Source: an uncultured Bdellovibrionales bacterium
GTDB taxonomy: Bacteria; Patescibacteriota; Minisyncoccia; Moranbacterales; UBA1568
NCBI GenBank assembly: GCA_964436855.1
Contig: CAYTED010000007.1
Coordinates: 16,779-80,778 of the forward strand
DNA: 64,000 nt
Reading direction: 5' to 3'
Below, piece by piece: positions 22,306 to 60,304 of this stretch. Positions within the stretch are counted from its first letter, which is position 1. Each line of letters opens with the position of its first letter. Under the pieces are notes generated by a model that saw only the letters and a list, made by a program, of their open reading frames with translations, did not search any database and was not told the origin of the DNA. Made by a program: the position numbers and the translations under genes.

Positions 22306-23625
22306 TCACATCTCTCTATCCTTTTCCCCCTCCTTCCACTCTACATCGAGAAAGTGCGACGCGCAGCTCATACACGGATCGTATGCACGGATGATTCGTT
22401 CGCAGCCGAGCGCGAGCGCTTCGCGGTCCATCGAAAGATTATCATTGATATAATCTTTCAAGTCGTACTCGATCGTAATCTGATTCTGCCCCGTCGGAAC
22501 GATAATTTCTCCTTCAACCACGATGCCGTTTTCATCGACTTCGAGTTTGTGGTAAAGCGTTCCTCGAGGTGCCTCGATCACTCCAACGCCAATCCCTGCT
22601 TTTTTCGGGAGTGCGATCGGTTTTTCTTCGACAAAATTTGCACTTTCAAGAAGATCAATTGCCTGATCCACCGAATGGAGAATGGCGATTGCTTGGGCAA
22701 GATTATTATGAAACACATCGTCCGATGGGAATTTTTCCAACGCATCTTTCGCATCACGTTTCGTGTTCGAATGAAGCGCGTCGCGATTGAGGTTCATTCG
22801 CGCGAGCGCGCCTACTCGGTACGGCTTCCCCTTGTACGCATATCCGCTCGCTTCCGAATACGGGATCACCACGTGTTCAAGGTGCTTTCGATAGTCCGCT
22901 TCTTCCGCGACCAATCCTTCCGAGTCGTGAATTTTTCCTTCGAGATACGAGAAATCCGGCGACACGAGCGCAAAATAATTCGACTCGCGCACGAATGAGA
23001 GCGGACTATTCAGAAATACTTGGATAAGCCGAAGCACCGCCGGACGAATCGATTTTAATTCTTCGATAATCGCGCCTTTCCCATTCATATCCGGCGTTTT
23101 TGCAAATCCTCCCGCCATCACGAATGGCGCGTGTACCGATCGTCCGCCCGTATAAATCGCCAAGTGATTCCCCGCTGCTTTTACCGCAAACGCGTCGTGC
23201 AACAAGTCATGTTGAATCGGATCATTCTCATCGAATTCAAGAAAAGAATCCTTCCCAAACAAATCCGGCATCGCGAAGATATACAAGTGAAGCGCGTGAT
23301 CGCGAATAATAAGCCCATGATAGAGAAGGTTTCGGAGCAGCATCGTCTGATCCGACGGCGTTACGCCAAGCGTCCGCTCCACCGCTTCGACGGAGGCGAG
23401 GATATGCGCATTGGAACACGTACCGCAGACACGCGCCAAAAGCTGCGGAATCGTCGATACCGGTTTCCCCTTGATCGCCTCGGTATAGAACCGCTTGAAT
23501 TCCTTGATGGAAAATTTTACGGACTCGACCTTGCCGTCTTTCAATTCAACATCGAGTCCGGCGGCGCCTTCGACCTTGGTGATTTCTTCGATCGAAAATC
23601 GGCTCATTTCGGATATTTGGTGCAT
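22306..23625 (-). CDS. [NiFe] hydrogenase large subunit (group 3-like, cytoplasmic)
   Basis: 439 aa; N-terminal RVCGTCS and C-terminal DPCMSCASH Ni-Fe ligand motifs, followed by a 15-aa C-terminal tail consistent with protease processing. Confidence 0.9.
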   Translation of the reverse strand: MHQISEMSRFSIEEITKVEGAAGLDVELKDGKVESVKFSIKEFKRFYTEAIKGKPVSTIPQLLARVCGTCSNAHILASVEAVERTLGVTPSDQTMLLRNLLYHGLIIRDHALHLYIFAMPDLFGKDSFLEFDENDPIQHDLLHDAFAVKAAGNHLAIYTGGRSVHAPFVMAGGFAKTPDMNGKGAIIEELKSIRPAVLRLIQVFLNSPLSFVRESNYFALVSPDFSYLEGKIHDSEGLVAEEADYRKHLEHVVIPYSEASGYAYKGKPYRVGALARMNLNRDALHSNTKRDAKDALEKFPSDDVFHNNLAQAIAILHSVDQAIDLLESANFVEEKPIALPKKAGIGVGVIEAPRGTLYHKLEVDENGIVVEGEIIVPTGQNQITIEYDLKDYINDNLSMDREALALGCERIIRAYDPCMSCASHFLDVEWKEGEKDREM

Positions 23626-23666
23626 ATTTTTCGAATTTTTTGATTACGAATTTCGAATGGAAAAAT

Positions 23667-24173
23667 TTATTTTTTCACTTCCGGAAGCGGGATATTGAAT
23701 TCGACGAGTGCGTCGTTTACCACTTTCAAGAACGCTTCTTCCGCCATCGGACAACCCGGAACCGACGCATCGATCGTGATGATCTCGTCTAGCTTCTTCA
23801 CCTTTTCTCCGTAATGAAATTTATCGAGAATAAACGCGATATCTTCCCGCTGTTCCTCGCCAAACGAATTCCGATGCGCCGACGGCATCCCCGTAATCGC
23901 ACACGCGCCGATCGCGACGATTTTCTTCGCGAGCCGCCGAATTTCTTTCAATTTCTCTTCTTGCTCCGGCGCCGTAATCGCACCCTCGACAAACGCGACA
24001 TCCATCTCATCCATCACGTTCTTCGTTTTCAACACCCGCGCATTTCGAATATCAAGCACTTCCTTCCACACCATATAGTGATCGTTCAGAAGCTCCGTAA
24101 ACATCACCGTACTATCCTCACAACACGTGAACGAAAACCATCCAATCCGCAGTTTTTTCTTTTGTTCGGACAT
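23667..24173 (-). CDS. [NiFe] hydrogenase small subunit (group 3 delta-like)
   Basis: 168 aa; Cys ligands CCEDS, GACAITG, PGCP typical of the proximal FeS cluster region of short small subunits. Confidence 0.85.
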   Translation of the reverse strand: MSEQKKKLRIGWFSFTCCEDSTVMFTELLNDHYMVWKEVLDIRNARVLKTKNVMDEMDVAFVEGAITAPEQEEKLKEIRRLAKKIVAIGACAITGMPSAHRNSFGEEQREDIAFILDKFHYGEKVKKLDEIITIDASVPGCPMAEEAFLKVVNDALVEFNIPLPEVKK

Positions 24174-24444: not shown

Positions 24445-25260
24445 CTATAACCGATCCTTTCCGAGAATCACAAGGATGTCCGCCTCCGGCTTCGGCTCAC
24501 CGTCCGGCAACGGCACAACTTCCGCGGCATACTCTGTCGCGAGCTTCTTCGCGAGTTCGGAAAATGCTCCGCTCACATCCACCACGATCGTTTTCTCATA
24601 CACCCCTTCGGCAATCACCTCCTCCTTCACCGACAATTCGCTCCCATATTTCACCGCAAGTTCTCCGTCGTATTGTTTCGCAAGACCTCGCTTTTCAGTG
24701 CCATTTGACACGACGATTTCGGCGATTTTGGAAACTTCTTCCGGAAGCGACGTATGTTCTTCCAAAACCTGCTCGTTTGTTGTACCGGCAACTTCTCCCG
24801 TTTCGGCGGGCGATAGACTTGGCGCTGTTTTACTATCGATATTTATAATCGTCATATCAACCACCTTCTTCGTACTCGGTCGATAGAGAAACGCTTTTCT
24901 TGCTTCGGGATACAAAAGCACCTTATCGCCGTTTTCCGCCTTTCGAAAAAAACTCTGTCCGGAAAGTTTTGTTTTATCGGTTACTGTCGCGATAGTCGGC
25001 GCCTCCCCTTCCGGAAGTTCGATAGACTTTCCAATCGTTTCCAGAATAATATTCGTATCGGACTTGGACGCTTCTGTCAGCACCTGCCGATACCGTGCAT
25101 AAAAATATCCGGACGAAACAACCGCGCCTCCCAAAAGAAGCAAGAAAAAAGACTTCCATACAATATTCACAGAAAATCCTCCCCGAATCTTCTCCGGAAC
25201 ATTTTCAACCATTTCAACCTCCTCTTTCTTTTTGAAAAACATAATCTTATATCTTTTCAA
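24445..25260 (-). CDS. Membrane-anchored LytR_C-domain protein
   Basis: N-terminal TM; ~45-aa middle domain; C-terminal LytR_C-like domain ending ADILVILGKD (consensus ends advvvvlGkD). One of four paralogs. Confidence 0.6.
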   Translation of the reverse strand: MKRYKIMFFKKKEEVEMVENVPEKIRGGFSVNIVWKSFFLLLLGGAVVSSGYFYARYRQVLTEASKSDTNIILETIGKSIELPEGEAPTIATVTDKTKLSGQSFFRKAENGDKVLLYPEARKAFLYRPSTKKVVDMTIINIDSKTAPSLSPAETGEVAGTTNEQVLEEHTSLPEEVSKIAEIVVSNGTEKRGLAKQYDGELAVKYGSELSVKEEVIAEGVYEKTIVVDVSGAFSELAKKLATEYAAEVVPLPDGEPKPEADILVILGKDRL

Positions 25261-25275
25261 TTACGTATATGCGAT

Positions 25276-26118
25276 TTATTGATTTCCGACAATCACCAAG
25301 ACGTCCGCATCGGGAGAAATTTCTCCTTCCGGAAGCGATGGCATCAGTGTTCCTCCGACTGTTTGCGCGATATTTTTCAGAATATCGTTCGCCATGTCGG
25401 AAAAGCCGATTACGAGAACTCCCTGATAATTGTCGTATGCCGCTTTTTCGCTCCTCCGAATGTTCCACTCCGGGTATGCTTGAGAAATCAAGTTCTCAAG
25501 CGAAGCGACGACGGAAGCGTCTTTGGCGCCGTTATAGATCGCAATGGTTGGCTTTTCTTTGTTTTCGGAAACACTTTTTTCCCCAAGAACCACTCCCTCG
25601 CTTGTCTGCGGTCGATCTTTCGCGATATCTTTCCCGGATTGAGCGGCGGCATTTTCCGTTTCGATATCAACTGTCGTTACATCGATTATTTTCCCTGTTG
25701 ATGGCCGATAGAGAACCGCCCGACCGCCATCGCCATAGAGAAGAATTTTATCACCATTCTCCGCACGCTTGAAAAAAGGCTGGTCATCGAGCTTATTTTT
25801 ATTTGTAACGGTGGCAACCGTAGGAATCCCGTTCGGCAATTCCATTATTCTACCGACCTTTTTCACGAGTTTTTCAAGTTCTTTCTCGTCCGAAACTTGT
25901 TTCGATTGATTCTGAAAATAAAAAATTGTTCCGATCGCAAGCAGAGACACAAACATAGCAAGTGCAACCAAACGCCCCTTCTTTTTTGAAAACGATCGAA
26001 AAGCAGTCGGCGGAAATTCGATAGGAGTCGCTTCCCGCAGAACATCGGATTGACCCAAAAGAGCGTCCTCTATCTTTTTTTTTCGACGAGAAGATTTTAT
26101 TTGTTTCTGTTCAGGCAT
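25276..26118 (-). CDS. Membrane-anchored LytR_C-domain protein (paralog)
   Basis: IAIYNGAKDASVVASLENLI...DADVLVIVGNQ; same architecture. Confidence 0.6.
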   Translation of the reverse strand: MPEQKQIKSSRRKKKIEDALLGQSDVLREATPIEFPPTAFRSFSKKKGRLVALAMFVSLLAIGTIFYFQNQSKQVSDEKELEKLVKKVGRIMELPNGIPTVATVTNKNKLDDQPFFKRAENGDKILLYGDGGRAVLYRPSTGKIIDVTTVDIETENAAAQSGKDIAKDRPQTSEGVVLGEKSVSENKEKPTIAIYNGAKDASVVASLENLISQAYPEWNIRRSEKAAYDNYQGVLVIGFSDMANDILKNIAQTVGGTLMPSLPEGEISPDADVLVIVGNQ

Positions 26119-26372
26119 AGTGTACGCCGCTAGAAAAAGAATATCGGAAGTATTCTCATGGAAATTCCGCTTACAAGAAACGCGAGCAGAAACGCCTGAT
26201 CAAAAAAGAGGAAGAAATTTCTATTTCCCGTCGATGCGGCCGCCGTGGAGAGGGCGATATCAAACGTCCCCGAACCATTGTCCCGAAGCTCAATATCCGC
26301 AAATGCCATACGTTATTTTCAGTTAAAACGCTTCTCTATGATACCACACCCCTTCAATCTCAAAGAAACTTT

Positions 26373-27137
26373 TCAATGCTCCGCGCTTCCAACGATCACC
26401 AGGATATCGGCATCTTCCGAGTTTATATTTTCTTCCGCGGGAAGCGTCGTAGCCGTCGCTCCAAGAAACGTCGAAAGATTTTTGACCGCCTTGTCGTTTT
26501 CTCCGGTAACGTCGACTACCATTGTATCGATATATGATGTGCTTGCTTTTTTCTCGAGTACGATATTGATCTTGGGAAAACGTTCTTCTAACGTCTTTTT
26601 TAGCGCATTCGCCCGTCCGTAAGAACCGTCAAATATCGCGATGCGTATCGATTTTGTAATCGCGCTTTCAAACGATTGAGCGACCTCTTGCGGATTCTCG
26701 GGCTGAAATTCCGGCGAACTTTCTTGATTGTTTACCGGCGTCACTTTCTTTTGAAACTCCCCCTCCGACGACGATACCGCGTTGATATTCACCGAAGAAA
26801 TATCTACCAACTTCCCCTTACTTGGACGATAAAGAAACGCTCGTCCCGCATTTCTATACACGAGCACCTGATCGCCGACTTCAGCTCGATCGAAAAAATT
26901 CTGTCCCGAAAACCGTTTCAAATCATCGATAGTAAAAAATAACGGGTCTTCTTCTGTCGGTATATCGACAATCTTTTTTATTTTTTCGGTCACGGTTCGG
27001 ATATTTCGCGCTTCGATTTCTTCCGGAAGCAATCGGTATTCCCTATAAAAATACCAGGCGCTCGCCGCCGCCGAAAAAAGAATGATTCCCTGCAAAAGCA
27101 GGCTTTTCCAAGCGCTTCCAAACATACCTTCTTTCAT
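26373..27137 (-). CDS. Membrane-anchored LytR_C-domain protein (paralog)
   Basis: IAIFDGSYGRANALKKTLEERFP...DADILVIVGSAEH. Confidence 0.6.
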   Translation of the reverse strand: MKEGMFGSAWKSLLLQGIILFSAAASAWYFYREYRLLPEEIEARNIRTVTEKIKKIVDIPTEEDPLFFTIDDLKRFSGQNFFDRAEVGDQVLVYRNAGRAFLYRPSKGKLVDISSVNINAVSSSEGEFQKKVTPVNNQESSPEFQPENPQEVAQSFESAITKSIRIAIFDGSYGRANALKKTLEERFPKINIVLEKKASTSYIDTMVVDVTGENDKAVKNLSTFLGATATTLPAEENINSEDADILVIVGSAEH

Positions 27138-27162
27138 AATTCAGATTTCTCTTTATCGGAAT

Positions 27163-29052
27163 TTATGCGGCGGTTCCATCGTCGGATCGACCCATATGCG
27201 TCCCATCTTCATAGGCTACCGCGTACATATCAGCGGTATCGTCATACCAGATAAACGAATACGATCCGTCCCCAACCCGCGAGGTTGTCCCGACGCGTTC
27301 ATCATCGGCAACACGAAAAATATCGATATTTACGGTACCTCCGCCCGAACCGGTAATAGATCCCGAGATACTGAAAGCAATGGAGTGGTATGTCATTAAA
27401 AAATCCAAGTGGTCAAACGTATTTGACGCATTCGCGGAAGCAAGCCTCCACCGACGTGATGTCTCGATATCGAGACGACTTAAAAGCGTATCTCCGGGCC
27501 ATCGGCTAAAAACCGAACGTGCGGTAAAGTACGCTTGTCGAACTCCAACTTCCGGATCGGTTGCCGATATATCGGTATAACAATTTTCCCATTTCAATCC
27601 CCCTTCTCCGGAAAGACGCTCCGTCTGCACGGTAACACCCGATGCGGTTCCCGTGCTTGTTGTCATATAAAAGTACCAACCGCCAATCGCGGTAAAAAAA
27701 TAATTCGTTTCCGGAATAACCGGTGCGGTAGCGGATATCGTTGAGCTGACCGCTGCTGCTGTTGTCGAGAAATTTTTCAAATTCCACCGAACCGTATGAT
27801 TGTGCGCTCCGACACCGTCGGTCGCTTTTCCGGAGGTATAGTTGATAATCCACAAACACGATACATTCAATCCCAGGTTTGTCGCGTCTGTCCGGTACGC
27901 ATCTGCCTGAAGCGTATTCGCTCCCCGGGAAAGTGTTGGCGTGAATGCTTCCATCAATCCCGCCCCACCGCCCATAATCGCGGCACCATCGGTGTATGTT
28001 TGAAAGGCTCCGGTACCAACCCGAAAATTTAATCCGGAAATCGCCGCCGTTTTATCGTAACAAACAAGCACCCCGGACTCCACTCCCGTAACCGTGTCCG
28101 GCTCTTCGATCCAAAGCGTTCGCTCGCCCCGCTGAAAATCCGCCGATGTCGTCCCTCCCATCGGAGAATCAAACTCCATTGGTAAAAGAAGAGAGTTCAG
28201 GATAGTGGTCGATGCGGACGGATCAAACTCGTAGGTTATAACCATATATACCTGCAAGTGCTCCGTAAAAGCCGACGACCCCCAAATATAAAACGAGTGC
28301 GAGGCATTCGTGGTAAAAGTCGGCTGATTCCACAAATAGGTAAACCAACGATCGGTAGCGAGTCCGGATTCGATACCGCCATTTGTATTGACGCCATTTG
28401 TGTCGATTTCCATCGAAATAGTCGGGTCGGTACCGGTGGTATCACTGTTCCCCTGAATGACAATATGCCAATCTCGAATCGTTTTTGATGACTCGGGAAG
28501 CCATGTATCAAGTGCCGGAATCGTCGCTATGGCCGTCCCCGGCTTCGTGGTCGCAAGCGCTCCGGACGGCGTATCAAGCGGCAAATAAACCGTCTTTATC
28601 TGTGTTGCCTGCGTATCGTCGTATTCATAGGTGATATACAGTCGTGCCGTAAGATCGCGCATCCCAAGCGTGGTACCGGTCGACTGATCCCAGTATGCCT
28701 GAATATCACAGGTCATATTTGTGCCAGACCAATTTGTAGAGAAGTGGGAAGTAAAATCAGCGGATACTTGATGTGAAACGTTCTCGCCGGAGTTTGCAAT
28801 ATCGTTCAGATTCGTATTCGTGGTATAGCCGGAAGCCCCAAGCTGCACCCCTATGCGCCATTCGGTAACCGTACCTCCGGTGTTCGTAATAATGTCGTTT
28901 GCCGTCATTACGCACAGAACACTCCGAAATGTAACCGTCCCACTCCCCTCCGGAATATATACCGTGAATTGGGTAAAGTTTGCCACCACTGCATCCGATG
29001 TCGAAGAAAGTGTCGGCGCTGAAAATTCGATAGTTTTGAGACGAGTAGCCAT
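27163..29052 (-). CDS. Large T/S/N/G-rich beta-type hypothetical protein (629 aa), no signal peptide
   Basis: Starts MATRLKTIEFSAPTLS with no N-terminal hydrophobic segment; paralog of 29814..31736 (shared blocks YITYEYDD(T/S)Q(A/T)TQIKTVY(L/I)PL, TIPALDT(W/E)LPE(S/T)SKT, ends RSD(D/N)GTA). Confidence 0.6.
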   Translation of the reverse strand: MATRLKTIEFSAPTLSSTSDAVVANFTQFTVYIPEGSGTVTFRSVLCVMTANDIITNTGGTVTEWRIGVQLGASGYTTNTNLNDIANSGENVSHQVSADFTSHFSTNWSGTNMTCDIQAYWDQSTGTTLGMRDLTARLYITYEYDDTQATQIKTVYLPLDTPSGALATTKPGTAIATIPALDTWLPESSKTIRDWHIVIQGNSDTTGTDPTISMEIDTNGVNTNGGIESGLATDRWFTYLWNQPTFTTNASHSFYIWGSSAFTEHLQVYMVITYEFDPSASTTILNSLLLPMEFDSPMGGTTSADFQRGERTLWIEEPDTVTGVESGVLVCYDKTAAISGLNFRVGTGAFQTYTDGAAIMGGGAGLMEAFTPTLSRGANTLQADAYRTDATNLGLNVSCLWIINYTSGKATDGVGAHNHTVRWNLKNFSTTAAAVSSTISATAPVIPETNYFFTAIGGWYFYMTTSTGTASGVTVQTERLSGEGGLKWENCYTDISATDPEVGVRQAYFTARSVFSRWPGDTLLSRLDIETSRRWRLASANASNTFDHLDFLMTYHSIAFSISGSITGSGGGTVNIDIFRVADDERVGTTSRVGDGSYSFIWYDDTADMYAVAYEDGTHMGRSDDGTAA

Positions 29053-29126
29053 TTATCGAATTATTAGTTAGAAAAGTATTCTCATTCTACCATAAAAAAC
29101 CGGGATATCTCCGGAAAATTTTTGTC

Positions 29127-29798
29127 TTATTTTTCTCCAACAATAACGAGAAGATCGGTTGACGGTATTTTTTCTCCTAAAGGAATCGTTTCTTCAAATA
29201 TTCCGTTCAGTCTTTCGGCCAAACGTTCTGAAATTTCACTCTGAAAATACGACGGATTGAAAATAAAAATCCCCCGGTAATCGGAATAATTGGCGTTTTC
29301 TCGAGCATTAATGGAGAGAAGAGGGAATTCTTCCTTTAAAATTCGTTCCACGTCCGCTACCCGTTCGGTATCGTGTGTCGCGATATACAACGAAAGCGTC
29401 AATGGGACCGTTGCGGCGGATTCATCATTCATTCCGGATAAAATTTCCGAATCGATACCCCCTCCCGACGGAAACGACGCGCTTTCGATAATTTTTCCGG
29501 TTTTCGGACGGAACAACAAAACCCACTTGTTCAATCGATACACCACCAATTGATCGCCATTGTCAACGCGATGAGGAAAAATTCTCGGATCAAGTTTTTT
29601 CACATCTTCAATCGTGAGCAAAATCGGCTCCTCATTTTTCGGAAGATCAACCAAGGCTCCGACAGACTCCTTGAATCGATCCGTTTCCTTGAGCTCGCCC
29701 CGTCGGTCGCGTTCCCATACTCGAAGTCCAAAAAAAACACTCCCTCCAATACAGGACAAAAGAATCGAAAAATAAAATATTTTTTGCCAGTACCTCAT
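29127..29798 (-). CDS. Membrane-anchored LytR_C-domain protein (paralog)
   Basis: C-terminal LTLSLYIATHDTERVADVERIL...STDLLVIVGEK. Confidence 0.6.
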   Translation of the reverse strand: MRYWQKIFYFSILLSCIGGSVFFGLRVWERDRRGELKETDRFKESVGALVDLPKNEEPILLTIEDVKKLDPRIFPHRVDNGDQLVVYRLNKWVLLFRPKTGKIIESASFPSGGGIDSEILSGMNDESAATVPLTLSLYIATHDTERVADVERILKEEFPLLSINARENANYSDYRGIFIFNPSYFQSEISERLAERLNGIFEETIPLGEKIPSTDLLVIVGEK

Positions 29799-29813
29799 GA
29801 AATACCGCTTCGC

Positions 29814-31736
29814 TTACGATGCCGTGCCATTGTCGGAACGCCCAATGAGTGTTGAACTCTCTCTCGCTTCCGTAAAGAGCGTTTCCGTATTATCGTACCA
29901 CGTAATGGAGTAACTCCCGTTTCCGGTACGAGAGGTTGTCGCCGCAAGCTCTTTATTGCTTGTACGCCACAAACTGATAGATACCGTCCCGCCGGATGAA
30001 CCGGTAATCTCACCCGAAACGGTGTACACAATGGAGTGGTAGGTCAACCAAAGATCCATATATATGAATCCCGTTCCGGCATTGGTATATGTCCACCACC
30101 AACGTCGCGTTCCTTCGGGATCAAGTGATCTCATAGGGTCGTTTGGGTACCTCTGAATATCATCGCGAACACCGGCAAAATGCTGATGCAACCCTTTTTC
30201 CGCGTCAGTATGTCCATTAATCGTATCAACCGTCAGCCATTCGCCTGCCGAATCGGTTTTTTCCATCATTAAAACAGCGCCGCCGAATGTTGTCGTGGTG
30301 TTTGTTACATGAGCGACATGGCATCCGAAACCGCTCAAGTAGTAGTCGGTGTCCGGAATACTGACCGCAAAGGCGGCTGTTTTTCGATTCGTCGCCGTCG
30401 CGCCATCAAATGTAAATCCGGCATTCCACTTGACCGTATGATTGGCGGCACCATATCCTTGTGTTGGCTTATCGGCGGTATAGTTCACAATCCAAAAACC
30501 AGAAATACCGGGACCGAAATCGGCCGTATCCGAACGATAGAAATCGGCCGTAAGATTGTTTTGACCACGATCAAGAGTAAAGGCGGAATCATTCCGAACC
30601 ATACAACCATTACCGCCGCAGAGAACGGCCGCCGCATCGGTATACGATACGAACGACCCTGTTCCCACGCGAAAATTCAATGTAGAAATAGCCGCAGCCT
30701 GTTCCCATACCGGGAAGAACGCTATCTGTTTGGTAGTAATGGTTCCCGGCTCTTCAATCCATAAGATCCGGCTTACTCGATCAAAATCCGTCGAAGCGGT
30801 ACCTCCCAATATGGATGCCTGCGAAACCATAAGCGTCGAGACAAAAACCCCGCTCGAAGCCGAAGCGTCAAACTCATATGTGACCACCATATACACCTGT
30901 TGGTGATTATGACGTGCCACGGATGCCCAAATATAAAATCCGTGTGTCGCGTTTGTTGTCATTCCAAGTCCCGCCGAAGATCCGCCCGAATCATAGTAAC
31001 GTGTCGTCCATACGAATTTTGCCCAATAATCCGATGTCGCGCCCATCTCAAGAGTCTGGCTCGTGTAAGCTGTGAGAGTATCAATCTGCATTGAAAGCGT
31101 GGAGTCAACCGTGGAAGCGGTATTGTTCACGTTACCCTGACAGACGATATACATACTTCGATACGTCTTCGACGTCTCGGGGAGCTCGGTATCGAGCGCG
31201 GGGATAGTATCGGTTGCCGTCCCCGGCTTCGCTGTTGCCAGTGTTCCAACCGGCGCATTGAGCGGGATGTAAACAGTTTTGATTTGCGTTGTCTGACTAT
31301 CGTCGTATTCGTAGGTAATGTATACCGTCGCCCCGACATTGTTCATAATAATACCCGATGCCGAAGCGTGGTCGACCAAAACAGAAACAGCGACCGTCTT
31401 GCTCGTGCCGGTTGTCCAGTTGGTCGTGAAGTGTGTCGTTGCATCCGCCGCATAAAAAAGCATTGTTTGTTCACCGGAGTTCGTTTCGAGGTTGGCATTG
31501 GTATACGATGTCGCCGTGGCACCACCCACCGACACATCGATACGCCGCGACGTATAGTTTCCAAGCGTCGTTGAGGCATCATTTACCTGAAGTTCCACGA
31601 CCGCTTTCTTGATCGTTACCGTTCCTGAAAATTCGGGAATATACGCGGTAATCACCGTCATCGCCGTAAGCGTATTGTCCGCAAGCGTATTGAGCTGCGG
31701 AATACCGTATTGAATGGTTTTCAGTCTTGTCGCCAT
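29814..31736 (-). CDS. Large T/S/N/G-rich beta-type hypothetical protein (640 aa), paralog, no signal peptide
   Basis: MATRLKTIQYGIPQLNT...; see 27163..29052. Confidence 0.6.
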   Translation of the reverse strand: MATRLKTIQYGIPQLNTLADNTLTAMTVITAYIPEFSGTVTIKKAVVELQVNDASTTLGNYTSRRIDVSVGGATATSYTNANLETNSGEQTMLFYAADATTHFTTNWTTGTSKTVAVSVLVDHASASGIIMNNVGATVYITYEYDDSQTTQIKTVYIPLNAPVGTLATAKPGTATDTIPALDTELPETSKTYRSMYIVCQGNVNNTASTVDSTLSMQIDTLTAYTSQTLEMGATSDYWAKFVWTTRYYDSGGSSAGLGMTTNATHGFYIWASVARHNHQQVYMVVTYEFDASASSGVFVSTLMVSQASILGGTASTDFDRVSRILWIEEPGTITTKQIAFFPVWEQAAAISTLNFRVGTGSFVSYTDAAAVLCGGNGCMVRNDSAFTLDRGQNNLTADFYRSDTADFGPGISGFWIVNYTADKPTQGYGAANHTVKWNAGFTFDGATATNRKTAAFAVSIPDTDYYLSGFGCHVAHVTNTTTTFGGAVLMMEKTDSAGEWLTVDTINGHTDAEKGLHQHFAGVRDDIQRYPNDPMRSLDPEGTRRWWWTYTNAGTGFIYMDLWLTYHSIVYTVSGEITGSSGGTVSISLWRTSNKELAATTSRTGNGSYSITWYDNTETLFTEARESSTLIGRSDNGTAS

Positions 31737-31821
31737 ACAATTATCTTATCCGACAAAAAGAGAACAGATCCCTGCCCTCTATGACAATACCTTGATCCAT
31801 GCCGGAATGTCGAAGGAAAAA

Positions 31822-32523
31822 TTATGTAAAATTATCGAGCTTCGCGAGAAGATCCCACTTATTATCGGTCGCGTTGTAGATAAATCCGAGATACATCGTT
31901 TTTGACACCACTGTCGTCGTCGGAAGCGCAAGGTCCGAACTCGCTCGATACCCACCCGTACCACTATTAAAAGCGAGTGTTTGCGCCGACGCATTGTCTT
32001 TGATTCGAATAATGAGTTGTTGCCCATGGGTCGGTGTCCCCGTTGGCGCACCAAAAGTCGCTCCGGCGGCGAGCGCAGTCAGAATATACACGTCCGTTGT
32101 ATCCACGTCGGGCGTTGGCGTAGCGGAAGATGTCGTCGATGTTACTCGCTTCGGCGCCTTTTTGGAAAATTTATATGAAAGACAAATCCAATTTCCACTC
32201 CCGAGCGAGAGGAATTCCGCCGTATCGTCCGCTACAGTCAAAATATCTTTGCCGCCGGGAAGAATGAGCGAGGTTCCGTTATAGGTCAGAGTGAGTGCTG
32301 CTGCAAAACGAACATTGCGCCGAATACCAGCCGAAACATTATCAAATGCGGTAATCGTCGTTGAACCGGTAATCCGAACACTATTTGATAGGGCTGCCCC
32401 GATATTGGTTGTTGTGCCGGATGCCACATCTACGCTCGCCGCCATATTGAGCGGAATAGAATCGAGCCGAACACTATTTTTTGATATACGGATTGGCATA
32501 ATCTCAAAACCCTTCCTTATCAA
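31822..32523 (-). CDS. Hypothetical T/S-rich protein (233 aa), no signal peptide
   Basis: Intact ORF immediately upstream of the large paralog pair; composition similar to them. Confidence 0.45.
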   Translation of the reverse strand: MIRKGFEIMPIRISKNSVRLDSIPLNMAASVDVASGTTTNIGAALSNSVRITGSTTITAFDNVSAGIRRNVRFAAALTLTYNGTSLILPGGKDILTVADDTAEFLSLGSGNWICLSYKFSKKAPKRVTSTTSSATPTPDVDTTDVYILTALAAGATFGAPTGTPTHGQQLIIRIKDNASAQTLAFNSGTGGYRASSDLALPTTTVVSKTMYLGFIYNATDNKWDLLAKLDNFT

Positions 32524-32983
32524 TAACTAAAAGTTCCCCGCCCTCATCATCCGTTACCCGCAATTGCTTTCCGGTTTCGGTAATCTTGAAATTTTCGAAA
32601 GTTTTCTCGGAAAGAACTGTTTCTCCGCGGAACATGTTCATAAGTGGGTTGAGGTATTTTCCTAAAAGAAACACTGCTCCACCGAAAACCGCATATTTGA
32701 GAAACGCTCGCCGACGGGCATTGAGAGGAAGTATCGCGTTTTTTCCTTGTACTGCTTTTTCGAGGCTTTCCTCAACGTCAAGCGCAGCTTTCCGCGAACT
32801 TCCAAAAAATCTTTTTATCCTCCGACAAAAAAAAGAAAACACTCTCCCTGATTCCTTACGTGTGTCAGAGAAGAATCTTTTTGATGATCGAACGGCTTCC
32901 TTTTCGATCAAAACGACTTTACCCTTGGTTATTTTCATTCCTTTTTGTTTCTTCACTCGCAATATCTTTGAGCTCCTCCTCAA
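32504..32983 (-). CDS. Hypothetical membrane protein
   Basis: One TM helix (YAVFGGAVFLLGKYL). ORF start overlaps the tatA 3' end, so the true start is probably an internal Met (about 32938). Confidence 0.35.
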   Translation of the reverse strand: MRRSSKILRVKKQKGMKITKGKVVLIEKEAVRSSKRFFSDTRKESGRVFSFFCRRIKRFFGSSRKAALDVEESLEKAVQGKNAILPLNARRRAFLKYAVFGGAVFLLGKYLNPLMNMFRGETVLSEKTFENFKITETGKQLRVTDDEGGELLVIDKEGF

Positions 32984-33122
32984 CCTCGCGTTTTCCTTTC
33001 TTAAATTCCCCCGTTACACGACCCAGTGAACGCGAAAACTCGACGATTTTTCCACTTCCGAAAAAAAGTACTGCCGCCACGAGAAGAATCACGATAACTT
33101 CCGGCAACCCAAGTCCAAACAT
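32919..33122 (-). CDS. tatA: Twin-arginine translocase subunit TatA/E
   Basis: 67 aa; MFGLGLPEVIVILLVAAVLFFGSGKIVEFSRSLG matches the TatA N-terminal TM plus amphipathic helix. Confidence 0.8.
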   Translation of the reverse strand: MFGLGLPEVIVILLVAAVLFFGSGKIVEFSRSLGRVTGEFKKGKREVEEELKDIASEETKRNENNQG

Positions 33123-33213
33123 ATGATTTCCATTAATGGTTCTCCGAGATTATATCACAAAAAAACGCACTGACAAAAATCAGCGCGCGTGGTTTATTGT
33201 ATGATTTGTCGTC

Positions 33214-34056
33214 TTACTGCTTCGGATTTTCTTCAACTACGGTCTCTTCTTCGGATGGTGATGCTTCTTGGTTGATAGTATCGTCTTTATTTGATGTCAT
33301 ATCCTCCCCTGCCGGAGGCGTATTTTCCGAAACCGTCCCTTCTGATTTATTTGTTGGCACATCGGTCGGCATACTCATATCAATCGCCAAGAAATCAGAA
33401 ACCGCCTGCACGACCATTTTATTAATCTCCTCTTTTGAAATAATCTGCGAGAGCGCCGGCGCCGGGATAGGACTTGGAGTGGATGCTCTTGTCGGCGAGA
33501 TCTCTTTCGGTTCGATTGTTTTTTTCGGAATCGCTTTTACATCCGATCCGACAAGCGAGGCGTACTGCCCATCAACCGATTTCTCCCTGTCTTTTTTTGT
33601 AAGCGATGCCTGTACTTCCGACAAATATACCACCTCCCGACCGATAACCTGCTCCGCCTGCTCGACGATATAGGTTCCGAGATCTCGTTTTCCAAGAAGC
33701 GTCTTCGGAATTTCCATTTTTGCCGTTTTGCGAATTTCTCTCCATGCATCGTCTAAAACTTCGAATGTTTGGTATGAATAAGCCACAAAATACGCTTCCT
33801 TATTCTCCGTTATCGAATCAATACGCATTTTAAGATCGTATGCTCCAAAATTTTTTCCCGCGATTTGAGAAACATCAGTTTTTTTTGGCAATACATCTGT
33901 TGGCTCGGTTTCACCGGGGGTAAAGACTGCTTCCCGTAACTTCGGACTCGACGCAAATGCTGCTCCGGCGCTCAAAATAATCACAAAGAGAAGAAATGGA
34001 ACGGCATTATTGTATTTGAGAAAATCGAGAAATACTTTCATATGTTTTCGCTTCAT
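33214..34056 (-). CDS. Hypothetical membrane-anchored protein with Pro/Ser/Thr/Glu-rich C-terminus
   Basis: N-terminal signal anchor; no recognised domain. Confidence 0.45.
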   Translation of the reverse strand: MKRKHMKVFLDFLKYNNAVPFLLFVIILSAGAAFASSPKLREAVFTPGETEPTDVLPKKTDVSQIAGKNFGAYDLKMRIDSITENKEAYFVAYSYQTFEVLDDAWREIRKTAKMEIPKTLLGKRDLGTYIVEQAEQVIGREVVYLSEVQASLTKKDREKSVDGQYASLVGSDVKAIPKKTIEPKEISPTRASTPSPIPAPALSQIISKEEINKMVVQAVSDFLAIDMSMPTDVPTNKSEGTVSENTPPAGEDMTSNKDDTINQEASPSEEETVVEENPKQ

Positions 34057-34076: not shown

Positions 34077-34850
34077 TTACGAACGCTTTAACCTCCATCC
34101 GGCCGCACTAATACCAATCACGTAGAGACCAAAGAGCGGCAAGGCAAGAAATGCCATTGTTATTCCACTTCCATCCGGCGTAACAATCGCGGAAAAAAGA
34201 ACAATCACAAATACAGCTCCGCGAAAATGCCGTTTCCAAAATTCGGGAGGGATAACTCCGGAACACGACAATGCAGCCATTCCAATCGGAAGGAGAAACG
34301 CAAGCCCCACCGAAATTGTCAGGAAAAACACGGATGATACGAAGTCGTCGAGTGCAAAAAAAGGCGCGACTCCGATCGGGTCGGAGAAGGAATAGAGAAG
34401 CGCAAACGTTTGTGGAATGATGATAAAAAATCCGACGGCACAACCACAGTAAAAAAGAAATACTGATGGAAAAAGGAAGCGAAAAAAAGTTTTTCGTTCC
34501 GTCTCTTTCAAAGCCGGGCGAAGATACTGAAAAAAAAGAAGGAGTCCAACCGGAAAAACAACAAGGATGGCAGTGAGAAATGCCATCATAATCGGTGCGA
34601 GAAATGACGAAACCGGTCCGAGTGCAACGACCGAAATACCTTCGGGAAGCAAGGTTTCTCTTGTAAAAAGAAAAAGATTTGTAGCAAAGCTCACCGAAGA
34701 AAACGATACGAAAGGAACCGTAATATTTCCAATTGTTCTTTCACTCGGACCAAGAAAAAAGAGTCCAAAAAAAACCAAAAAAAGAACGATTGTCCCTCGA
34801 ATGACTAATCGTTTGAAAGCACTCAATTCACTTGCAAGATACTCTCGCAT
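34077..34850 (-). CDS. tatC: Twin-arginine translocase subunit TatC
   Basis: 257 aa, 6 TM; SAIVTPDGSGITMAFLALPLFGLY is the characteristic TatC C-terminal region. Confidence 0.8.
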   Translation of the reverse strand: MREYLASELSAFKRLVIRGTIVLFLVFFGLFFLGPSERTIGNITVPFVSFSSVSFATNLFLFTRETLLPEGISVVALGPVSSFLAPIMMAFLTAILVVFPVGLLLFFQYLRPALKETERKTFFRFLFPSVFLFYCGCAVGFFIIIPQTFALLYSFSDPIGVAPFFALDDFVSSVFFLTISVGLAFLLPIGMAALSCSGVIPPEFWKRHFRGAVFVIVLFSAIVTPDGSGITMAFLALPLFGLYVIGISAAGWRLKRS

Positions 34851-34852
34851 AA

Positions 34853-36778
34853 TTACAACTCATCAAATACAAGCATTGCATTGTTATCGTTATCGTAGAC
34901 ACCAAGCTCGGTTGCGGAATCATTTTTCAAATATACGCCATTGCCAAACTTGAGAACGTTTTCGATAAAAATATTCCCATCTCCCGTCAGCGTGAGCGCG
35001 GGGCATGCATCATTATCGCAAACCCAGAGATTCTCGGAAAGTGCCCGGATATCCGATCCGGTTGCCGCAATTTGCAGATCTCCAACCGAATCAACGGTCA
35101 TTTCGCTATAATTCGTAAGATCCTTGGAAAGTCGCACTTGCGGAGCACTCGCGGCCTGTACCACTTCAAGCACGCGTGCCGGTGAAGCAGTTCCGATACC
35201 GACATTCCCCGTACCATCAATCACAAACGGTGTTGTATCACTCACTGCGTCATCCACCCGAACCGCAAGATTATTGGTTCCGGTCGCGCGATGATCTACG
35301 AAAAGCGAGGTATTTGCATTGAGCGCGCCGATATTGGAAACCGAGAGAACATTTCCGGTATTTGAAGCGCTCGAACCACTCAAGGAAATTCCCGCCAAAT
35401 TTCCGGTAAATGTGGTTGAACTCGAAGCGACAGTCAGCCCAGATCCAGATGTCAGTCCATTGGTTGTTATCGCAAGACCCGTTTCGCCATCGATTGAATT
35501 CGCTGTAAGATTCGCACCGTTTGCCGCATTCGAACTCTGCACGAGATCAAGTACCGCGATCGCTGCCGTTGTATTGTCTTGACTCACTTGAAGCGTAAAC
35601 GCCGAAAGATCGTTTCCCCCAGACGATGGGTTCTTGATAACAAGACCATCATCCGCGGCCGTCAGTGAAATCGTCGCATTTCCTCCATCGGCATCATTCC
35701 CATACGTCGTTTGAAGATCGCTTGATCCGCCCGTCCCGCAACCGGCATTGGTTTCATTACAGAGTGTTTTTGTTGTTCCTCCTTCATTGATTTTAAATTT
35801 TCCAGCCGCGGAGTCATACCAGATATCTCCCGCGGCCGCGCCGGTCGTTCCGGAAACGATCACAGAAAGAAAGTCTCCGGTTGCAACGGATACCCGGCCG
35901 GAAGCAGAATCAAGAGTAAGTCCGGATGATCCTCCGGATGAAAGCGTTACCGCGCCTGCGCCGGTATAGCTTTGACCCGCGGCGATAGAAACACCGCCCG
36001 TATCGACCGTAATCGAATCAGCGGTAAGCGCATCTTGCACATCGACAATTCCGGATCCATTCGCGAGTAAAACCAGCGATTCATTGGTTCCGGTCGTGAT
36101 ATCGGTCGTTGCACCGGTAAATGTCAGTCCTGTTGAACCAATGATTTTATTTGTCAGCGTCTGTCCCGTCGTCAGGTCAGCAAGCGTTATCGTCCCCGAT
36201 GGAAGGGTCGCGACCGTCGTCGCTGTCGAAGTTAAGGTGAGAGGAAATGCTCCGGATGTCGTAAAAGCATCTGCGAAAGAAACTGTTTTGCCGTTCGCGA
36301 TCGTCAATGTTCCGGTCGTATCCGTTACGGAAAGCCCGTGAACCTTGTCGGCATTGAATGCATACGGAACGGCGGTAAAGCGAACGCGCGGCGACATTTC
36401 GCCATCGCTATTAAATTCGATACCGAGGTAAATATTGTCGGTATTGAAATCAACCGATCCGGGAAGTGCCGTATGCGTTCCGAGTGCCACTTGAAACACG
36501 CCATCGGTAACCGTCACCTGTGTCGTGCCACTATTCCACGTTTCCGTCCAAATCGCTGCGCCACCGGATGAGACGGAATAAAGCTTGAAAACAAAGTCGT
36601 AACTTCCGTTCGACACATTCGTTCCGTCCGAATTCACGACTTTTCCCTGAAAGTTGATTTGTTTGTTGATGCCGGTCGCAGCAAATACGGTTCCCGAAAA
36701 AGCAAAAATTCCCCCGAAAAGAGCAAGGGTGATAATCGAAGAAAGGGTGATATTTTTGATATTTCGGATCTGCCGCAT
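34853..36778 (-). CDS. Large secreted cell-surface protein (641 aa) with N-terminal INFQGK beta-rich module
   Basis: Signal peptide ITLALFGGIFAFSGTVFA; INFQGKVVNSDGTNVSNGSYDFVFKLYS...SPRVRFTAVPYAF recalls a module recurrent in giant extracellular proteins; G/T/S-rich remainder. Confidence 0.65.
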   Translation of the reverse strand: MRQIRNIKNITLSSIITLALFGGIFAFSGTVFAATGINKQINFQGKVVNSDGTNVSNGSYDFVFKLYSVSSGGAAIWTETWNSGTTQVTVTDGVFQVALGTHTALPGSVDFNTDNIYLGIEFNSDGEMSPRVRFTAVPYAFNADKVHGLSVTDTTGTLTIANGKTVSFADAFTTSGAFPLTLTSTATTVATLPSGTITLADLTTGQTLTNKIIGSTGLTFTGATTDITTGTNESLVLLANGSGIVDVQDALTADSITVDTGGVSIAAGQSYTGAGAVTLSSGGSSGLTLDSASGRVSVATGDFLSVIVSGTTGAAAGDIWYDSAAGKFKINEGGTTKTLCNETNAGCGTGGSSDLQTTYGNDADGGNATISLTAADDGLVIKNPSSGGNDLSAFTLQVSQDNTTAAIAVLDLVQSSNAANGANLTANSIDGETGLAITTNGLTSGSGLTVASSSTTFTGNLAGISLSGSSASNTGNVLSVSNIGALNANTSLFVDHRATGTNNLAVRVDDAVSDTTPFVIDGTGNVGIGTASPARVLEVVQAASAPQVRLSKDLTNYSEMTVDSVGDLQIAATGSDIRALSENLWVCDNDACPALTLTGDGNIFIENVLKFGNGVYLKNDSATELGVYDNDNNAMLVFDEL

Positions 36779-37022: not shown

Positions 37023-37682
37023 TCAATTTTTTTCGAAAATTTCAATGGAAGAGAGAATTTCTTGCCATTCAGCCTCCGAAAAATCTCGAGAAGAATTCTT
37101 GGCGACATACGATAGCGCGAGTATCCGATCGGGACGAACAGAATAGATCGTTCGTTCAAACCCTTCGGCATCGTTCGAAAAAACACTCACTCGAACGCCA
37201 GCAATCGTCTCTTTTGTGTCTTTGTATCGTTTTGGGTCCGATTCCCGAAGCTTGAGACCGGAAAGCCCCCGATCTCCGGAGGGAAAAACGATATATGAGA
37301 GAGTCCTTGTTCCCGATTCGGCATTTGCCTCAAAATACGCTTGTTCCAAAACATTTTTCATTTCTCGATTTCGCTCAAGAAAGTCGAATGGATATCGAAA
37401 AGAAACATATTCTCCGGAAAAAACCTTTTTCTCCGGGGATTCTTCTGGCATGAATTCTCCCGTGTTTTGATATGTAATCACCCCAAGCGACGGCCCATTC
37501 ATCATTTTCCAGAAAAAATATCCAATCGCGAAAATCGCAACAAAAATGAGAGCAATAAGAACTCTCAAAGAAACTTTCTTCTTCGATTTTTTTTCTTCAG
37601 TTCCGACTATGATTGTACTGGTCGACTTTTCCTCCATATAACAAAAAGAAATATACAAAGAATAACTCCTCCCCCGATACAC
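37023..37682 (-). CDS. Hypothetical membrane-anchored protein
   Basis: TM helix VLIALIFVAIFAIGYFFW; no recognised domain. Confidence 0.45.
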   Translation of the reverse strand: MYRGRSYSLYISFCYMEEKSTSTIIVGTEEKKSKKKVSLRVLIALIFVAIFAIGYFFWKMMNGPSLGVITYQNTGEFMPEESPEKKVFSGEYVSFRYPFDFLERNREMKNVLEQAYFEANAESGTRTLSYIVFPSGDRGLSGLKLRESDPKRYKDTKETIAGVRVSVFSNDAEGFERTIYSVRPDRILALSYVAKNSSRDFSEAEWQEILSSIEIFEKN

Positions 37683-38539: not shown

Positions 38540-38560
38540 AATTTTGTTTCTGAAACCCTA

Positions 38561-39631: not shown

Positions 39632-39644
39632 ACTTTTTTCTCTT

Positions 39645-40703: not shown

Positions 40704-40806
40704 AGAGTCATTTCGGTGAATACCCTTATTATACCGCTTGTTTTTCTTTTTTTCCACACAAAAGGAGGGCTTCCGCCCTCCGTAAAAATGTGTTTTGATA
40801 TTCTCC

Positions 40807-41847: not shown

Positions 41848-41920
41848 ACTTTTTTATTTTTTATTCCAATCTTTCTGTAATTATACTCCAGCTAAAAAAA
41901 CCGTCAAATATTTCCGCCTT

Positions 41921-42985: not shown

Positions 42986-43013
42986 ATCCGAACAAATGTA
43001 CATAAAAAAGAGA

Positions 43014-60301: not shown

Positions 60302-60304
60302 AAT

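Follow-up and report, generated by a model that had tools for sequence, protein, structure and literature searches.

Why does the chromosome of a Moranbacteria/Paceibacteria-type CPR bacterium carry two large proteins of virion type, neither with a Sec or Tat signal, among genes for membrane proteins and the Tat translocase? The locus lies in a window of 64 kb, by which we mean the whole stretch of DNA that was analysed. We tentatively propose, with a probability of roughly 40%, that it is a domesticated phage virion-appendage module, which has been fixed in the chromosome and is used on the cell envelope for attachment.

A protein family in a conserved gene row

All ORFs of the unit lie on the minus strand, where an earlier sequence-only reading had placed them, and the gene order that it gave (a 233-aa protein, big2, one LytR_C protein, big1 and three LytR_C proteins) is real. 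The first ORF indeed spans 32523..31822, but translation probably begins at the ATG at 32499, so that the protein has 225 aa rather than 233 (hyp225, 31822..32499). The two large genes, big2 (29814..31736, 640 aa) and big1 (27163..29052, 629 aa), encode platform proteins of one family, BIG. They are paralogs as had been claimed, since the quoted shared blocks are present and the proteins are 44% identical over the full length (E 2e-165). Their richness in Thr, Ser, Gly and Asn was also borne out (37-38% T+S+G+N vs 22-25% in the membrane proteins), and both open with MATRLKTI and contain neither a hydrophobic stretch nor an RR motif. At the DNA level the best blocks of the duplicated genes are only ~70% identical, so the copies in the window are old and not a recent tandem duplication.

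BIG has no sequence match in Pfam, PHROG, NCBIfam or PDB, and we found no solved structure and no characterised homologue. The family comprises ~960 clusters at 50% identity (958 representatives at E<=1e-3). Nearly all alignments of these representatives begin at residue 1 and the length is almost always ~630 aa, and this invariance of length and N-terminus indicates purifying selection. The predicted model is confident (pLDDT 93) and all-beta, in agreement with the beta-type fold expected by the sequence-only reading; it consists of four tandem jelly rolls followed by a small C-terminal beta domain, which in big1 is a beta-sandwich.

In this bacterium BIG has a fixed place in a conserved row of cell-envelope genes. 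The row, which at least 10 species-level genomes share, consists of a secreted fibre-like protein, TatC, a 280-aa protein, TatA, a twin-arginine mini-protein, hyp225, BIG, the mini-protein MAF59, a LytR_C protein and DnaG. The BIG alleles are incongruent with genome relatedness. The closest relative of big2 is BIG of L060 (86%), while big1 is closest to BIG of L049 and L050 (78%); moreover, L050 and L060 are 88% identical in their M proteins (the LytR_C-type membrane proteins) but only 49% in BIG. Judging from these identities, BIG alleles are swapped between close relatives, which is the pattern expected for a recognition determinant.

Phage relatives and the MAF partner

A phage origin of these genes had been given second place, yet it has the better support, since BIG stands beside phage head genes and hyp225 carries phage fibre domains. 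BIG is present in genuine phage genomes. In L010, whose terminase was read from the sequence, the gene order is portal, protease, major head, 107, 183, BIG, MAF430, ..., sheath and tape measure; BIG is also near head genes in L037 and L012, and a 735-kb phage carries tandem BIG genes beside a 2816-aa collagen-repeat protein. BIG is an undescribed family of phage virion-appendage proteins, and its place near head genes suggests a possibility that it is a head or neck decoration and not a receptor-binding part. The 64-kb window contains no phage hallmark genes, as the sequence-only reading had noticed, and thus the locus is not a prophage.

The hyp225 product consists of two domains, each with relatives among phage fibre or virion proteins. 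It matches phrog_3030 (E 5e-16); its residues 25-125 match Rhizobium phage 'tail fiber' proteins and gp74 of an EBPR siphovirus, its residues 166-227 match mycobacteriophage gp108-type proteins, and its relatives bear Collagen or Mtd_N domains on fibre proteins. By these matches, hyp225 is built from two phage fibre-tip domains. It lacks a signal peptide and is 78% identical to the L007 orthologue, with 72-86% identity among relatives.

The gene 3' of BIG nearly always opens with a conserved 'MAF…LRDNG…FD' peptide, and the protein is otherwise variable (51 to 1469 aa, n = 36). Among 1345 ORFs, an HMM of this motif detected 36 proteins, all encoded downstream of BIG: 34 within 400 nt and two at 524-574 nt. 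In 35 of the 36 the motif begins at one of the first three residues, and the exception is an ORF that was called too long. The MAF motif occurs specifically in genes that follow BIG. Rather than LytR_C, it is the MAF peptide protein that universally accompanies BIG. In phages this partner is a large variable protein, and in Moranbacteria/Paceibacteria-type genomes it is the peptide and a hydrophobic tail only.

In the window the partner is MAF59 (26130..26309, minus strand), a 59-aa mini-protein recognised from its sequence, its translation and tblastn, in which a conserved N-terminal adaptor peptide, 'MAFADIELRDNGSGTFDIALS', is joined to a C-terminal hydrophobic tail. It is 80% identical over 40 aa to the L049 orthologue (tblastn), and orthologues directly follow BIG in L049, L053, L061 and L065. 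The sequence-only reading correctly saw a membrane protein after each large protein (M4 after big2, M3 after big1) but overlooked this conserved ORF in the gap between M3 and M2, which belongs to the unit. A single MAF59 gene serves two BIG genes, each of which directly precedes an M gene; we count this against the attachment reading.

The phage kinship allows that the cell keeps BIG and the fibre tips as weapons against phages, poisoning the assembly of related phages or masking a surface receptor, in which case allele swapping would follow the local phage population. Cellular and phage BIG proteins are 51-54% identical, which equals the similarity among cellular copies, and the same three-gene arrangement occurs in phages; the exchange of alleles between close relatives fits as well. 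We nevertheless regard this as unlikely, since the module is part of a core envelope row rather than a defence island, we noticed no known defence genes nearby, the partner takes a membrane-anchor form and secreted fibre genes adjoin.

LytR_C-type proteins, Tat genes and export

The unit contains four membrane-anchored LytR_C-type proteins: M1 (24445..25260, 271 aa as called from TTG, its start being uncertain), M2 (25276..26118, 280 aa), M3 (26373..27137, 254 aa) and M4 (29127..29798, 223 aa, the most divergent copy). They align over the whole length and end in ...D(I/V/L)LVI(V/L)G. The LytR_C assignment stands at the level of family and fold, the latter confirmed by a structure model of M2, but none of the four copies reaches the Pfam gathering cutoff; M1 was the sole match to PF13399 (E 0.005, 18.2 bits vs the cutoff of 22.2). 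Between the anchor and LytR_C they contain an additional conserved beta domain of ~50 residues with no clear structural relative, and the domain search found no LCP catalytic domain in any of them.

The proposed unit of BIG and LytR_C is present in each of the 11 Paceibacteria-type loci seen, two of which represent one contig, but is lineage-specific. No LytR_C neighbour of BIG was seen in the Saccharimonadia loci, where a Kelch-type protein follows BIG instead. The sequence-only reading took BIG for a non-phage, glycosylation-prone S-layer or attachment protein, anchored by LytR_C and exported non-classically. Although the composition, the all-beta fold, the confirmed LytR_C fold and the pairing in one lineage all agree with it, we consider this very unlikely: the family is common to phages, where BIG has no LytR_C partner, its conserved partner is the MAF protein, it lacks a signal peptide, searches of Pfam and NCBIfam found no wall-binding domain in it, S-layer homology domains included, and we know of no transferase activity of LytR_C solo domains.

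LytR_C-family homologues without BIG were found in other CPR lineages, and in many genomes dnaG has an M gene upstream; a conserved position before dnaG may be all that places the LytR_C gene here, which would weaken the attachment reading. Given the phage origin, BIG and hyp225 could then be inert leftovers of an old prophage beside ordinary wall-maintenance genes. This is quite improbable, since the ORFs are intact, full-length and at the same chromosomal position in those species-level genomes (at least 10) and across CPR classes, hyp225 is well conserved, BIG appears to be under purifying selection, and BIG and M were duplicated together in two genomes, that of the window and L053.

The tat genes are just upstream on the minus strand, as had been stated. 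The tatC gene (34077..34850; PF00902, E 2.6e-36) is found at this place in 12 related loci (cluster c4). The tatA gene (32919..33122, 67 aa, MFGLGLPEVIVILLVAAVLFFGSGK...), read from the sequence, has near-identical ORFs in L049 and L060, and the L007 gene at this position carries PF02416. Between them lies a conserved ORF for a 280-aa protein with an N-terminal hydrophobic anchor (33214..34056; cluster c7, 10 loci), which has no match in Pfam or NCBIfam and is 40% identical to the 287-aa protein there in L007. The ORF between tatA and hyp225 (32504..32938, start codon uncertain) encodes the mini-protein with a canonical twin-arginine motif, RRRAFLKY; its conservation is limited to the last ~72 residues, beginning RRRAFLKYAVFGGAVFLLG (7 orthologues, cluster c12), and its Saccharimonadia counterpart at the same position has 79-82 aa and the motif TRKQFL. 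Tat genes also adjoin BIG in the Saccharimonadia loci L056 and L058, but several other BIG loci of this class have no tat genes within 10 kb, which speaks against the proposed export by Tat. L092 contains a similar RR-like protein in a Tat operon without BIG, and thus the mini-protein may be a general Tat companion.

The row begins with W_641 (34853..36778, minus strand), a T/G/S-rich, fibre-like protein that is predicted to be secreted by its N-terminal Sec signal peptide. It is 70% identical to a 666-aa L007 protein at the same position (cluster c6, 10 loci), and its residues 30-108 resemble the N-domain of Bdellovibrio prey-recognition fibres in a sub-threshold match to NCBIfam NF053851, Bdello_MAT_N (E 5e-9, 36 bits, cutoff 60).

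The lack of an export signal in BIG and hyp225 counts against an external location. Moreover, the topology of MAF59 is ambiguous: it has no signal peptide, and its sole hydrophobic stretch forms the very C-terminus, as is usual in tail-anchored proteins. If MAF59 were tail-anchored with its N-terminus inside, BIG and hyp225 would stay at the cytoplasmic face of the membrane, and the Tat and LytR_C genes would be unrelated neighbours. We think this unlikely too, since the nearest relatives are external virion parts, other genomes pair BIG with large proteins, Kelch-type or Ser-rich, of a kind typical of binding modules, and the flanking genes are consistently extracytoplasmic.

Proposed assembly and known systems

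If the locus is a domesticated appendage module, it would consist of hyp225, which supplies fibre tips, the rigid ~630-aa BIG with its four jelly rolls, and a MAF partner, of which the first ~22 residues ('MAF..LRDNG..FD..L') are kept and the rest varies freely. MAF59 would be this partner reduced to the peptide and a hydrophobic tail, and BIG would bind the peptide and so be tethered to the cytoplasmic membrane. The adjacent TatA/TatC may export BIG and hyp225 in the folded state, perhaps as hitch-hikers on the twin-arginine mini-protein, a role suggested by gene adjacency. The LytR_C solo-domain proteins may connect the assembly to the cell wall or set its position there, and at the surface the assembly would attach to or recognise other cells. 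With two old BIG alleles and four LytR_C paralogs, this genome would then encode two variants of the device.

Partial likenesses are found among known proteins and systems. The eight-stranded jelly roll of PNGase F (PDB 1pgs) matches one of the five domains of BIG at 10% identity, but only the fold is alike: the similarity does not extend over the whole chain, and nothing points to catalytic residues. The closest known LytR_C solo-domain proteins are mycobacterial, namely Rv0431 (PDB 2m5y) and the secreted protein of PDB 6q10, while the CPR proteins add the ~50-residue beta domain and form four paralogs interleaved with phage-derived genes. In Tat hitch-hiking, a twin-arginine partner carries a signal-less subunit, as the small subunit of E. 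coli hydrogenase-2 carries the large one. Similarly, signal-less folded proteins are encoded here directly after tatA and an RRxFLK protein, but no cofactor-containing enzyme takes part here and the candidate carrier is a mini-protein of ~70 residues.

The mosaic adhesive trimer (MAT) fibres of Bdellovibrio bacteriovorus are chromosomal, phage-tail-fibre-like and surface-displayed, and recognise prey (Caulton et al. 2024, PMC10769870); they have interchangeable tips and are made by a bacterium living on other bacteria (PMC10769870). They are single Sec-exported chains with a conserved N-domain of ~130 aa, whereas the present module is split over three genes whose products have neither a signal peptide nor that domain, and BIG is a jelly-roll chain, not a beta-helical or beta-prism fibre. 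On the other hand, the adjacent W_641 approaches the MAT N-terminal domain, and a fibre of another kind, a 2032-aa Peptidase_S74 protein exported by Sec, is followed elsewhere by a LytR_C-family homologue. Phage tail-fibre and receptor-binding cassettes (e.g. Mtd of Bordetella phage BPP-1) differ in that BIG lacks a match to any PHROG, Pfam family or fibre protein of solved structure and is located in three phages beside head genes, not at the tail tip. They are similar in the short conserved N-terminal adaptor with a highly variable remainder, in the Mtd_N or collagen stalks of hyp225-domain relatives and in the horizontal exchange of alleles.

Gene layout around the two large paralogs

The minus-strand ORFs at 24.4-32.5 kb of the window follow exactly the gene order given by the sequence-only reading, namely hyp233, big2 (640 aa), M4 (223 aa), big1 (629 aa), M3 (254 aa), M2 (280 aa) and M1 (271 aa), where M1-M4 are four membrane-anchored LytR_C-type paralogs. 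The first protein, hereafter hyp225, is most likely 225 aa long, from ATG at 32499, and not 233 aa as called before. The two large genes, big1 (27163..29052) and big2 (29814..31736), had been described as clear paralogs, and their products do align from end to end (44% identity, E 2e-165), with the quoted sequence blocks present. They are also as rich in Thr, Ser, Gly and Asn as had been claimed (37-38% for the four residues together), and both start with MATRLKTI and carry neither a hydrophobic nor a twin-arginine stretch. The tatA and tatC genes reported near the array are likewise there: TatC matches PF00902 (2.6e-36) and a 67-aa TatA ORF lies at 33122..32919. The best DNA stretches of the duplicated genes are only about 70% identical, which indicates that the copies are old, and the DNA repeats of the window gave no sign of recent duplication.

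Promoter- and terminator-like sites at 23.5-37.5 kb were no commoner than in shuffled sequence. These sites, whose counts thus stay within the shuffled expectation, include two terminator-like hairpins. One falls between hyp225 and big2 (31759-31780, minus strand); the other, just upstream of tatA (33149-33188, minus strand), precedes an 11/12 promoter-like site that has an extended -10 TG. The genes immediately downstream of the M array are those for both subunits, small and large, of a NiFe hydrogenase (22306-24173, minus strand), with hypF, hypE and hypD further on, within 57074-61327. The hydrogenase is an unusual neighbour for an envelope row; the row of relatives ends at dnaG instead.

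The BIG family, its phage relatives and its partner

The large proteins belong to a widespread family, here called BIG. At least 882 homologues of big1 were found, nearly all of 625-660 aa and about 50% identical, and a BIG profile searched against 1.84 billion cluster representatives matched 958 clusters at E<=1e-3, of which 715 reach E<=1e-30, with alignments running from residue 1 to the end in almost all of them. No match to BIG was found in Pfam, PHROGs or NCBIfam, nor in a profile search over all PDB sequences. The AlphaFold model, a single-chain one like all structure models in this analysis, is confidently all-beta (pLDDT 93.2, pTM 0.92), which agrees with the 'beta-type' character assigned from the sequence. 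It consists of four successive sandwiches (jelly rolls) of ~135 residues, each ending in a '..TYE.D'-like strand, and a C-terminal sandwich of ~70 residues; the N-terminus is modelled as a strand of the first domain, not as a signal peptide. From the recurring strand endings, it is plausible that the jelly rolls arose by internal duplication; blastp among the domains gave weak matches only (best E 3e-4). All Foldseek matches of BIG to viral models had a TM-score <0.2, and the picornavirus-like capsid and minor-tail names in that list were given no weight. The PNGase F family was rejected because one domain only matches, at 10% identity; a two-domain architecture with sequence similarity was not found.

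The sequence-only reading had favoured a non-phage explanation, in which these proteins may form a surface layer or an attachment system. Their composition and beta fold stand, and the non-phage S-layer idea is an unlikely rival, BIG having no signal peptide and no SLH-type or similar wall-anchoring domain in Pfam or NCBIfam.

BIG relatives are encoded on 40 IMG/VR contigs, and BIG was found among the structural genes of bona fide phages (L010, L037 and L012 among the compared loci). L010 is a clear myovirus, with its terminase recognised from sequence, and has the order terminase, portal, 99, protease, 147, major head, 107, 183, BIG, 430, 287, 156, 159, 240, sheath, tube, 263 and tape measure. 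The order in L037 is portal, 241 aa (likely protease), major head, 175, 439, 70, BIG and 432, while BIG lies a few genes past portal in L012 and a few genes past the head-closure (connector) gene in L034. These gene orders make BIG a phage structural-module protein, near head genes in these cases. Moreover, tblastn found two full-length BIG homologues with 33% identity in a 735-kb 'uncultured phage' (INPHARED). In this huge phage (L006, LR756501.1, 2056-16050), the tandem homologues of 656 and 687 aa come after a 2816-aa protein that consists of collagen triple-helix repeats over nearly all its length, and the stretch looks like a fibre region.

The smaller protein also has phage relatives. 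It matches phrog_3030, a PHROG with function unknown (E 5e-16). Residues 25-125 of hyp225 occur, by tblastn, as a domain inside 'putative tail fiber' proteins of Rhizobium phages and match EBPR siphovirus gp74 at 62% identity, and the match for residues 166-227 is the C-terminus of gp108 from mycobacteriophage Alice, whose gene adjoins a head-decoration gene. Hundreds of proteins that differ in length contain the N-domain (63-75% identity), some of them with collagen repeats or Mtd_N. The tail-fibre alternative of the earlier reading thus stands in part: BIG and hyp225 have phage relatives, but the window has no phage hallmark genes. The rest of the window holds ordinary cellular genes, including BipA, NrdD, PPIase, P-type ATPase, DsbD-type proteins, ThiF, NiFe hydrogenase with HypD/E/F, PilB, PilC and pseudopilins. 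On a Saccharimonadales chromosome (L004, 15807-18302), more phage-like genes were seen a few kb beyond BIG, namely those for a 119-aa protein with the 'MARLP..GD.G.WG..LN' start of the fibre-like gene upstream of BIG, a 232-aa protein matching a virion structural PHROG at 1e-12, and a Laminin_G_3 protein.

In both phage and cellular loci, the gene directly after BIG, mostly at a gap of 0-18 nt, usually encodes a protein starting with MAF(A)D(I/V)xLR(D/N)xGxxxF(D/N)(I/V)xL, or with the variant MAFTVxANxSTGFxIxL. Beyond this motif, the MAF partner is 51 to about 1500 aa long and unrelated between loci. In all the loci fetched, with 1345 ORFs between them, an HMM of the first ~23 MAF residues found 36 proteins; its seed sequences are among these matches, and many non-seed matches behave alike. 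As many as 43 of 45 domain rows fell in genes <=400 nt downstream of BIG, and two other MAF proteins (L065 and L062) lie 524-574 nt downstream of it. The motif starts within the first three residues in 35 of 36 proteins, the exception, in L065, being an ORF called too long. The partner is a Kelch-type protein of 867-1272 aa in Saccharimonadia. In Moranbacteria/Paceibacteria-type genomes, it is only 53-59 aa long and consists of the motif, a conserved NFF(L/F)FF(D/H)E and a hydrophobic C-terminal tail. The copy in the window, MAF59 (MAFADIELRDNGSGTFDIALSTAAASTGNRNFFLFFDQAFLLAFLVSGISMRILPIFFF), lies at 26309..26130, within the 254-nt gap between M3 and M2. At another locus (L063, 12235-16122), a ~1295-aa protein has the MAF adaptor start and is otherwise almost pure (S-x-S-P-S-S-S) repeats; there are two tandem BIG genes in this locus, with tatA/tatC downstream.

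These features define BIG as an undescribed phage structural family, with ~960 clusters at the 50% identity level, an architecture of four jelly rolls and a short conserved adaptor peptide marking a variable partner. It is established that a module of BIG, hyp225 and the MAF partner is common to phages and CPR chromosomes.

The chromosomal row, LytR_C-type proteins and allele swapping

A scan of one genome per species gave 42 loci. A contig labelled Candidatus Moraniibacteriota is among the closest ones (77-78% identity), and other loci are from Paceibacteria and Saccharimonadales. The row common to at least 10 loci consists of fn3_5-like surface proteins, a ~209-aa protein, a secreted fibre-like protein of 641-740 aa, TatC, a 280-aa protein, TatA, a twin-arginine mini-protein (RR mini-protein), hyp225, BIG, MAF59, a LytR_C-type protein and DnaG. 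The window departs from it by duplications only (two fn3_5-like proteins, two BIG and four M), and BIG and M are duplicated in L053, too. The proposed unit of a large protein plus a LytR_C protein recurs in other Patescibacteria within this row, but was not seen in Saccharimonadia, where the partner is of Kelch type. It is also established that the module is fixed, in this lineage, in a row of envelope genes that contains Tat genes and a gene for a LytR_C solo-domain protein. A rival explanation takes the module as an inert remnant beside unrelated wall genes, and has to be read with its phage relatives on one side and this fixed position on the other.

Between the pseudopilin genes and the Tat row (37607-43045, minus strand), tandem fn3_5 / WxL-interacting-like surface protein paralogs of 310, 356 and 393 aa are encoded together with T/S-rich proteins of 346 and 374 aa, an arrangement that resembles Gram-positive WxL surface-protein clusters. 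In L001 and L004 from Saccharimonadia, the same fn3_5 / WxL-interacting-like family adjoins ~205-aa T/S-rich secreted proteins with 'WGYRVD ... VWYG' motifs. The contigs L049, L054, L060 and L071 come from TPA assemblies with 'uncultured Bdellovibrionales' or 'Gammaproteobacteria' in their titles, although they follow the Moranbacteria-type row gene for gene, and the organism labels of these bins look wrong.

Each of M1-M4 has a single hydrophobic helix at the N-terminus, then a conserved block in the middle and, at the C-terminus, a block that closes with D(I/V/L)LVI(V/L)G. Single window copies do not reach the Pfam cutoff for LytR_C, since M1 scores 18.2 bits against PF13399 (gathering cutoff 22.2) and M2, M3 and M4 give no match, but the assignment holds for the family and the fold. 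About 20 of the 110 M2 homologues in CPR genomes carry a precomputed PF13399 match, 43 of 77 aligned family members match at E<=0.01 (best 6e-9), and the family profile found the LytR_C domain of M. tuberculosis Rv0431 in PDB (E 0.017). The M2 model (pLDDT 81.9) starts with a TM helix and a second helix, goes on to a small beta domain at 100-149 and, past a disordered linker, closes with a C-terminal alpha/beta domain, so that the alpha/beta fold of solved LytR_C-only proteins is present in a window copy; no convincing relative of the middle domain was found. Neither the four window proteins nor the 77 family members contain an LCP catalytic domain, and they are thus membrane-anchored LytR_C 'solo' proteins. 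Elsewhere, a LytR_C-family homologue follows a Sec-exported Peptidase_S74 fibre of 2032 aa (L091), and another adjoins tatC and three tatA genes on a contig that carries a protein found in Collierbacteria genomes.

The RR mini-protein (32504-32938, minus strand) is conserved in its last ~72 residues only. This part opens with a canonical twin-arginine motif and a hydrophobic stretch, RRR(A/T)FLKYALFGGAVF, in 7 orthologues. The N-terminal region is open in all orthologues, basic and unconserved, and the start codon is uncertain. The Saccharimonadia counterpart, of 79-82 aa with TRKQFL, occupies the same position. Tat genes adjoin BIG in L056 and L058 and were not found beside it in L001 or L004. 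A twin-arginine motif with a hydrophobic stretch is absent from BIG (MATRLKT...) and hyp225 (MPIRISKN...) themselves, and assembly at the cytoplasmic face is therefore a rival to export, to be weighed against the adjacent Tat genes.

Sequence identities differ among the genes of the row. M proteins of L050 and L060 are 88% identical and their BIG 49%; the values for L007 and L067 are 71% and 35%. big1 groups with BIG of L049 and L050 (78%) and big2 with that of L060 (86%), some Paceibacteria-type BIG proteins share 60-65% identity with one from Saccharimonadia, and BIG of phage L010 is 51-54% identical to cellular copies, while hyp225 keeps 72-86% identity across the same genomes. This incongruence indicates that BIG has been replaced gene by gene at a fixed locus. 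An anti-phage role of the module is a further rival, which has to be considered for genes shared with phages, next to their fixed place among envelope genes.

A candidate appendage and its nearest known systems

We favour, at a probability of roughly 0.4, that the module is a domesticated appendage, displayed on the cell envelope and used in attachment or recognition. MAF59 would tether BIG through its MAF peptide, the adjacent Tat system may serve as the export route, and the LytR_C proteins could be wall-associated partners. A bolder and rather unlikely version is that CPR bacteria took over an appendage module from phages and that a dedicated Tat system exports it in the folded state, by hitch-hiking on the ~70-residue twin-arginine anchor, with the 59-residue adaptor-plus-tail mini-protein as tether, and that swapping of BIG alleles, partly via phages, sets the attachable hosts. 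If this were true, the Tat-exported captured module would give candidate host-range determinants for a large share of uncultivated bacterial diversity.

To our knowledge, host recognition and holding by ultra-small CPR/Patescibacteria are largely unknown beyond type IV pili. The locus provides a concrete, widely conserved candidate: a three-part phage-derived module at a fixed place in the Moranbacteria/Paceibacteria-type envelope row, and in a different form in Saccharimonadia, whose BIG alleles are exchanged like recognition determinants. In addition, the MAF peptide could be used for annotating phage genomes and finding BIG partners, and a Tat route for signal-less phage-type proteins, if real, would be an unusual use of the pathway. 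Neither the BIG family nor the MAF adaptor nor the gene row was found described in the searchable literature on Patescibacteria tail fibres, S-layers and Tat/adhesins, and a Saccharibacteria Tn-seq paper makes no mention of the family or the locus.

The closest functional precedent is the MAT fibre family of Bdellovibrio (PMC10769870). BIG does not belong to it, since it lacks both a signal peptide and the MAT N-domain and folds differently; neither BIG nor hyp225 matches NF053851 (the MAT N-domain), and hyp225 also has no signal peptide. In the same row, the fibre-like protein W_641 (34853..36778, minus strand) has a Sec signal and 43% T/S/G/N, and shares 70% identity with its positional counterpart in L007. 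Its residues 30-108 match NF053851 at E 5e-9 (36 bits, under the curated cutoff of 60), and W_641 may represent a fibre of the MAT kind in a CPR bacterium. We rate the module as phage fibre-type proteins co-opted by bacteria living on other bacteria, with a minority chance of something more unusual than such co-option if the Tat hitch-hiking is real.
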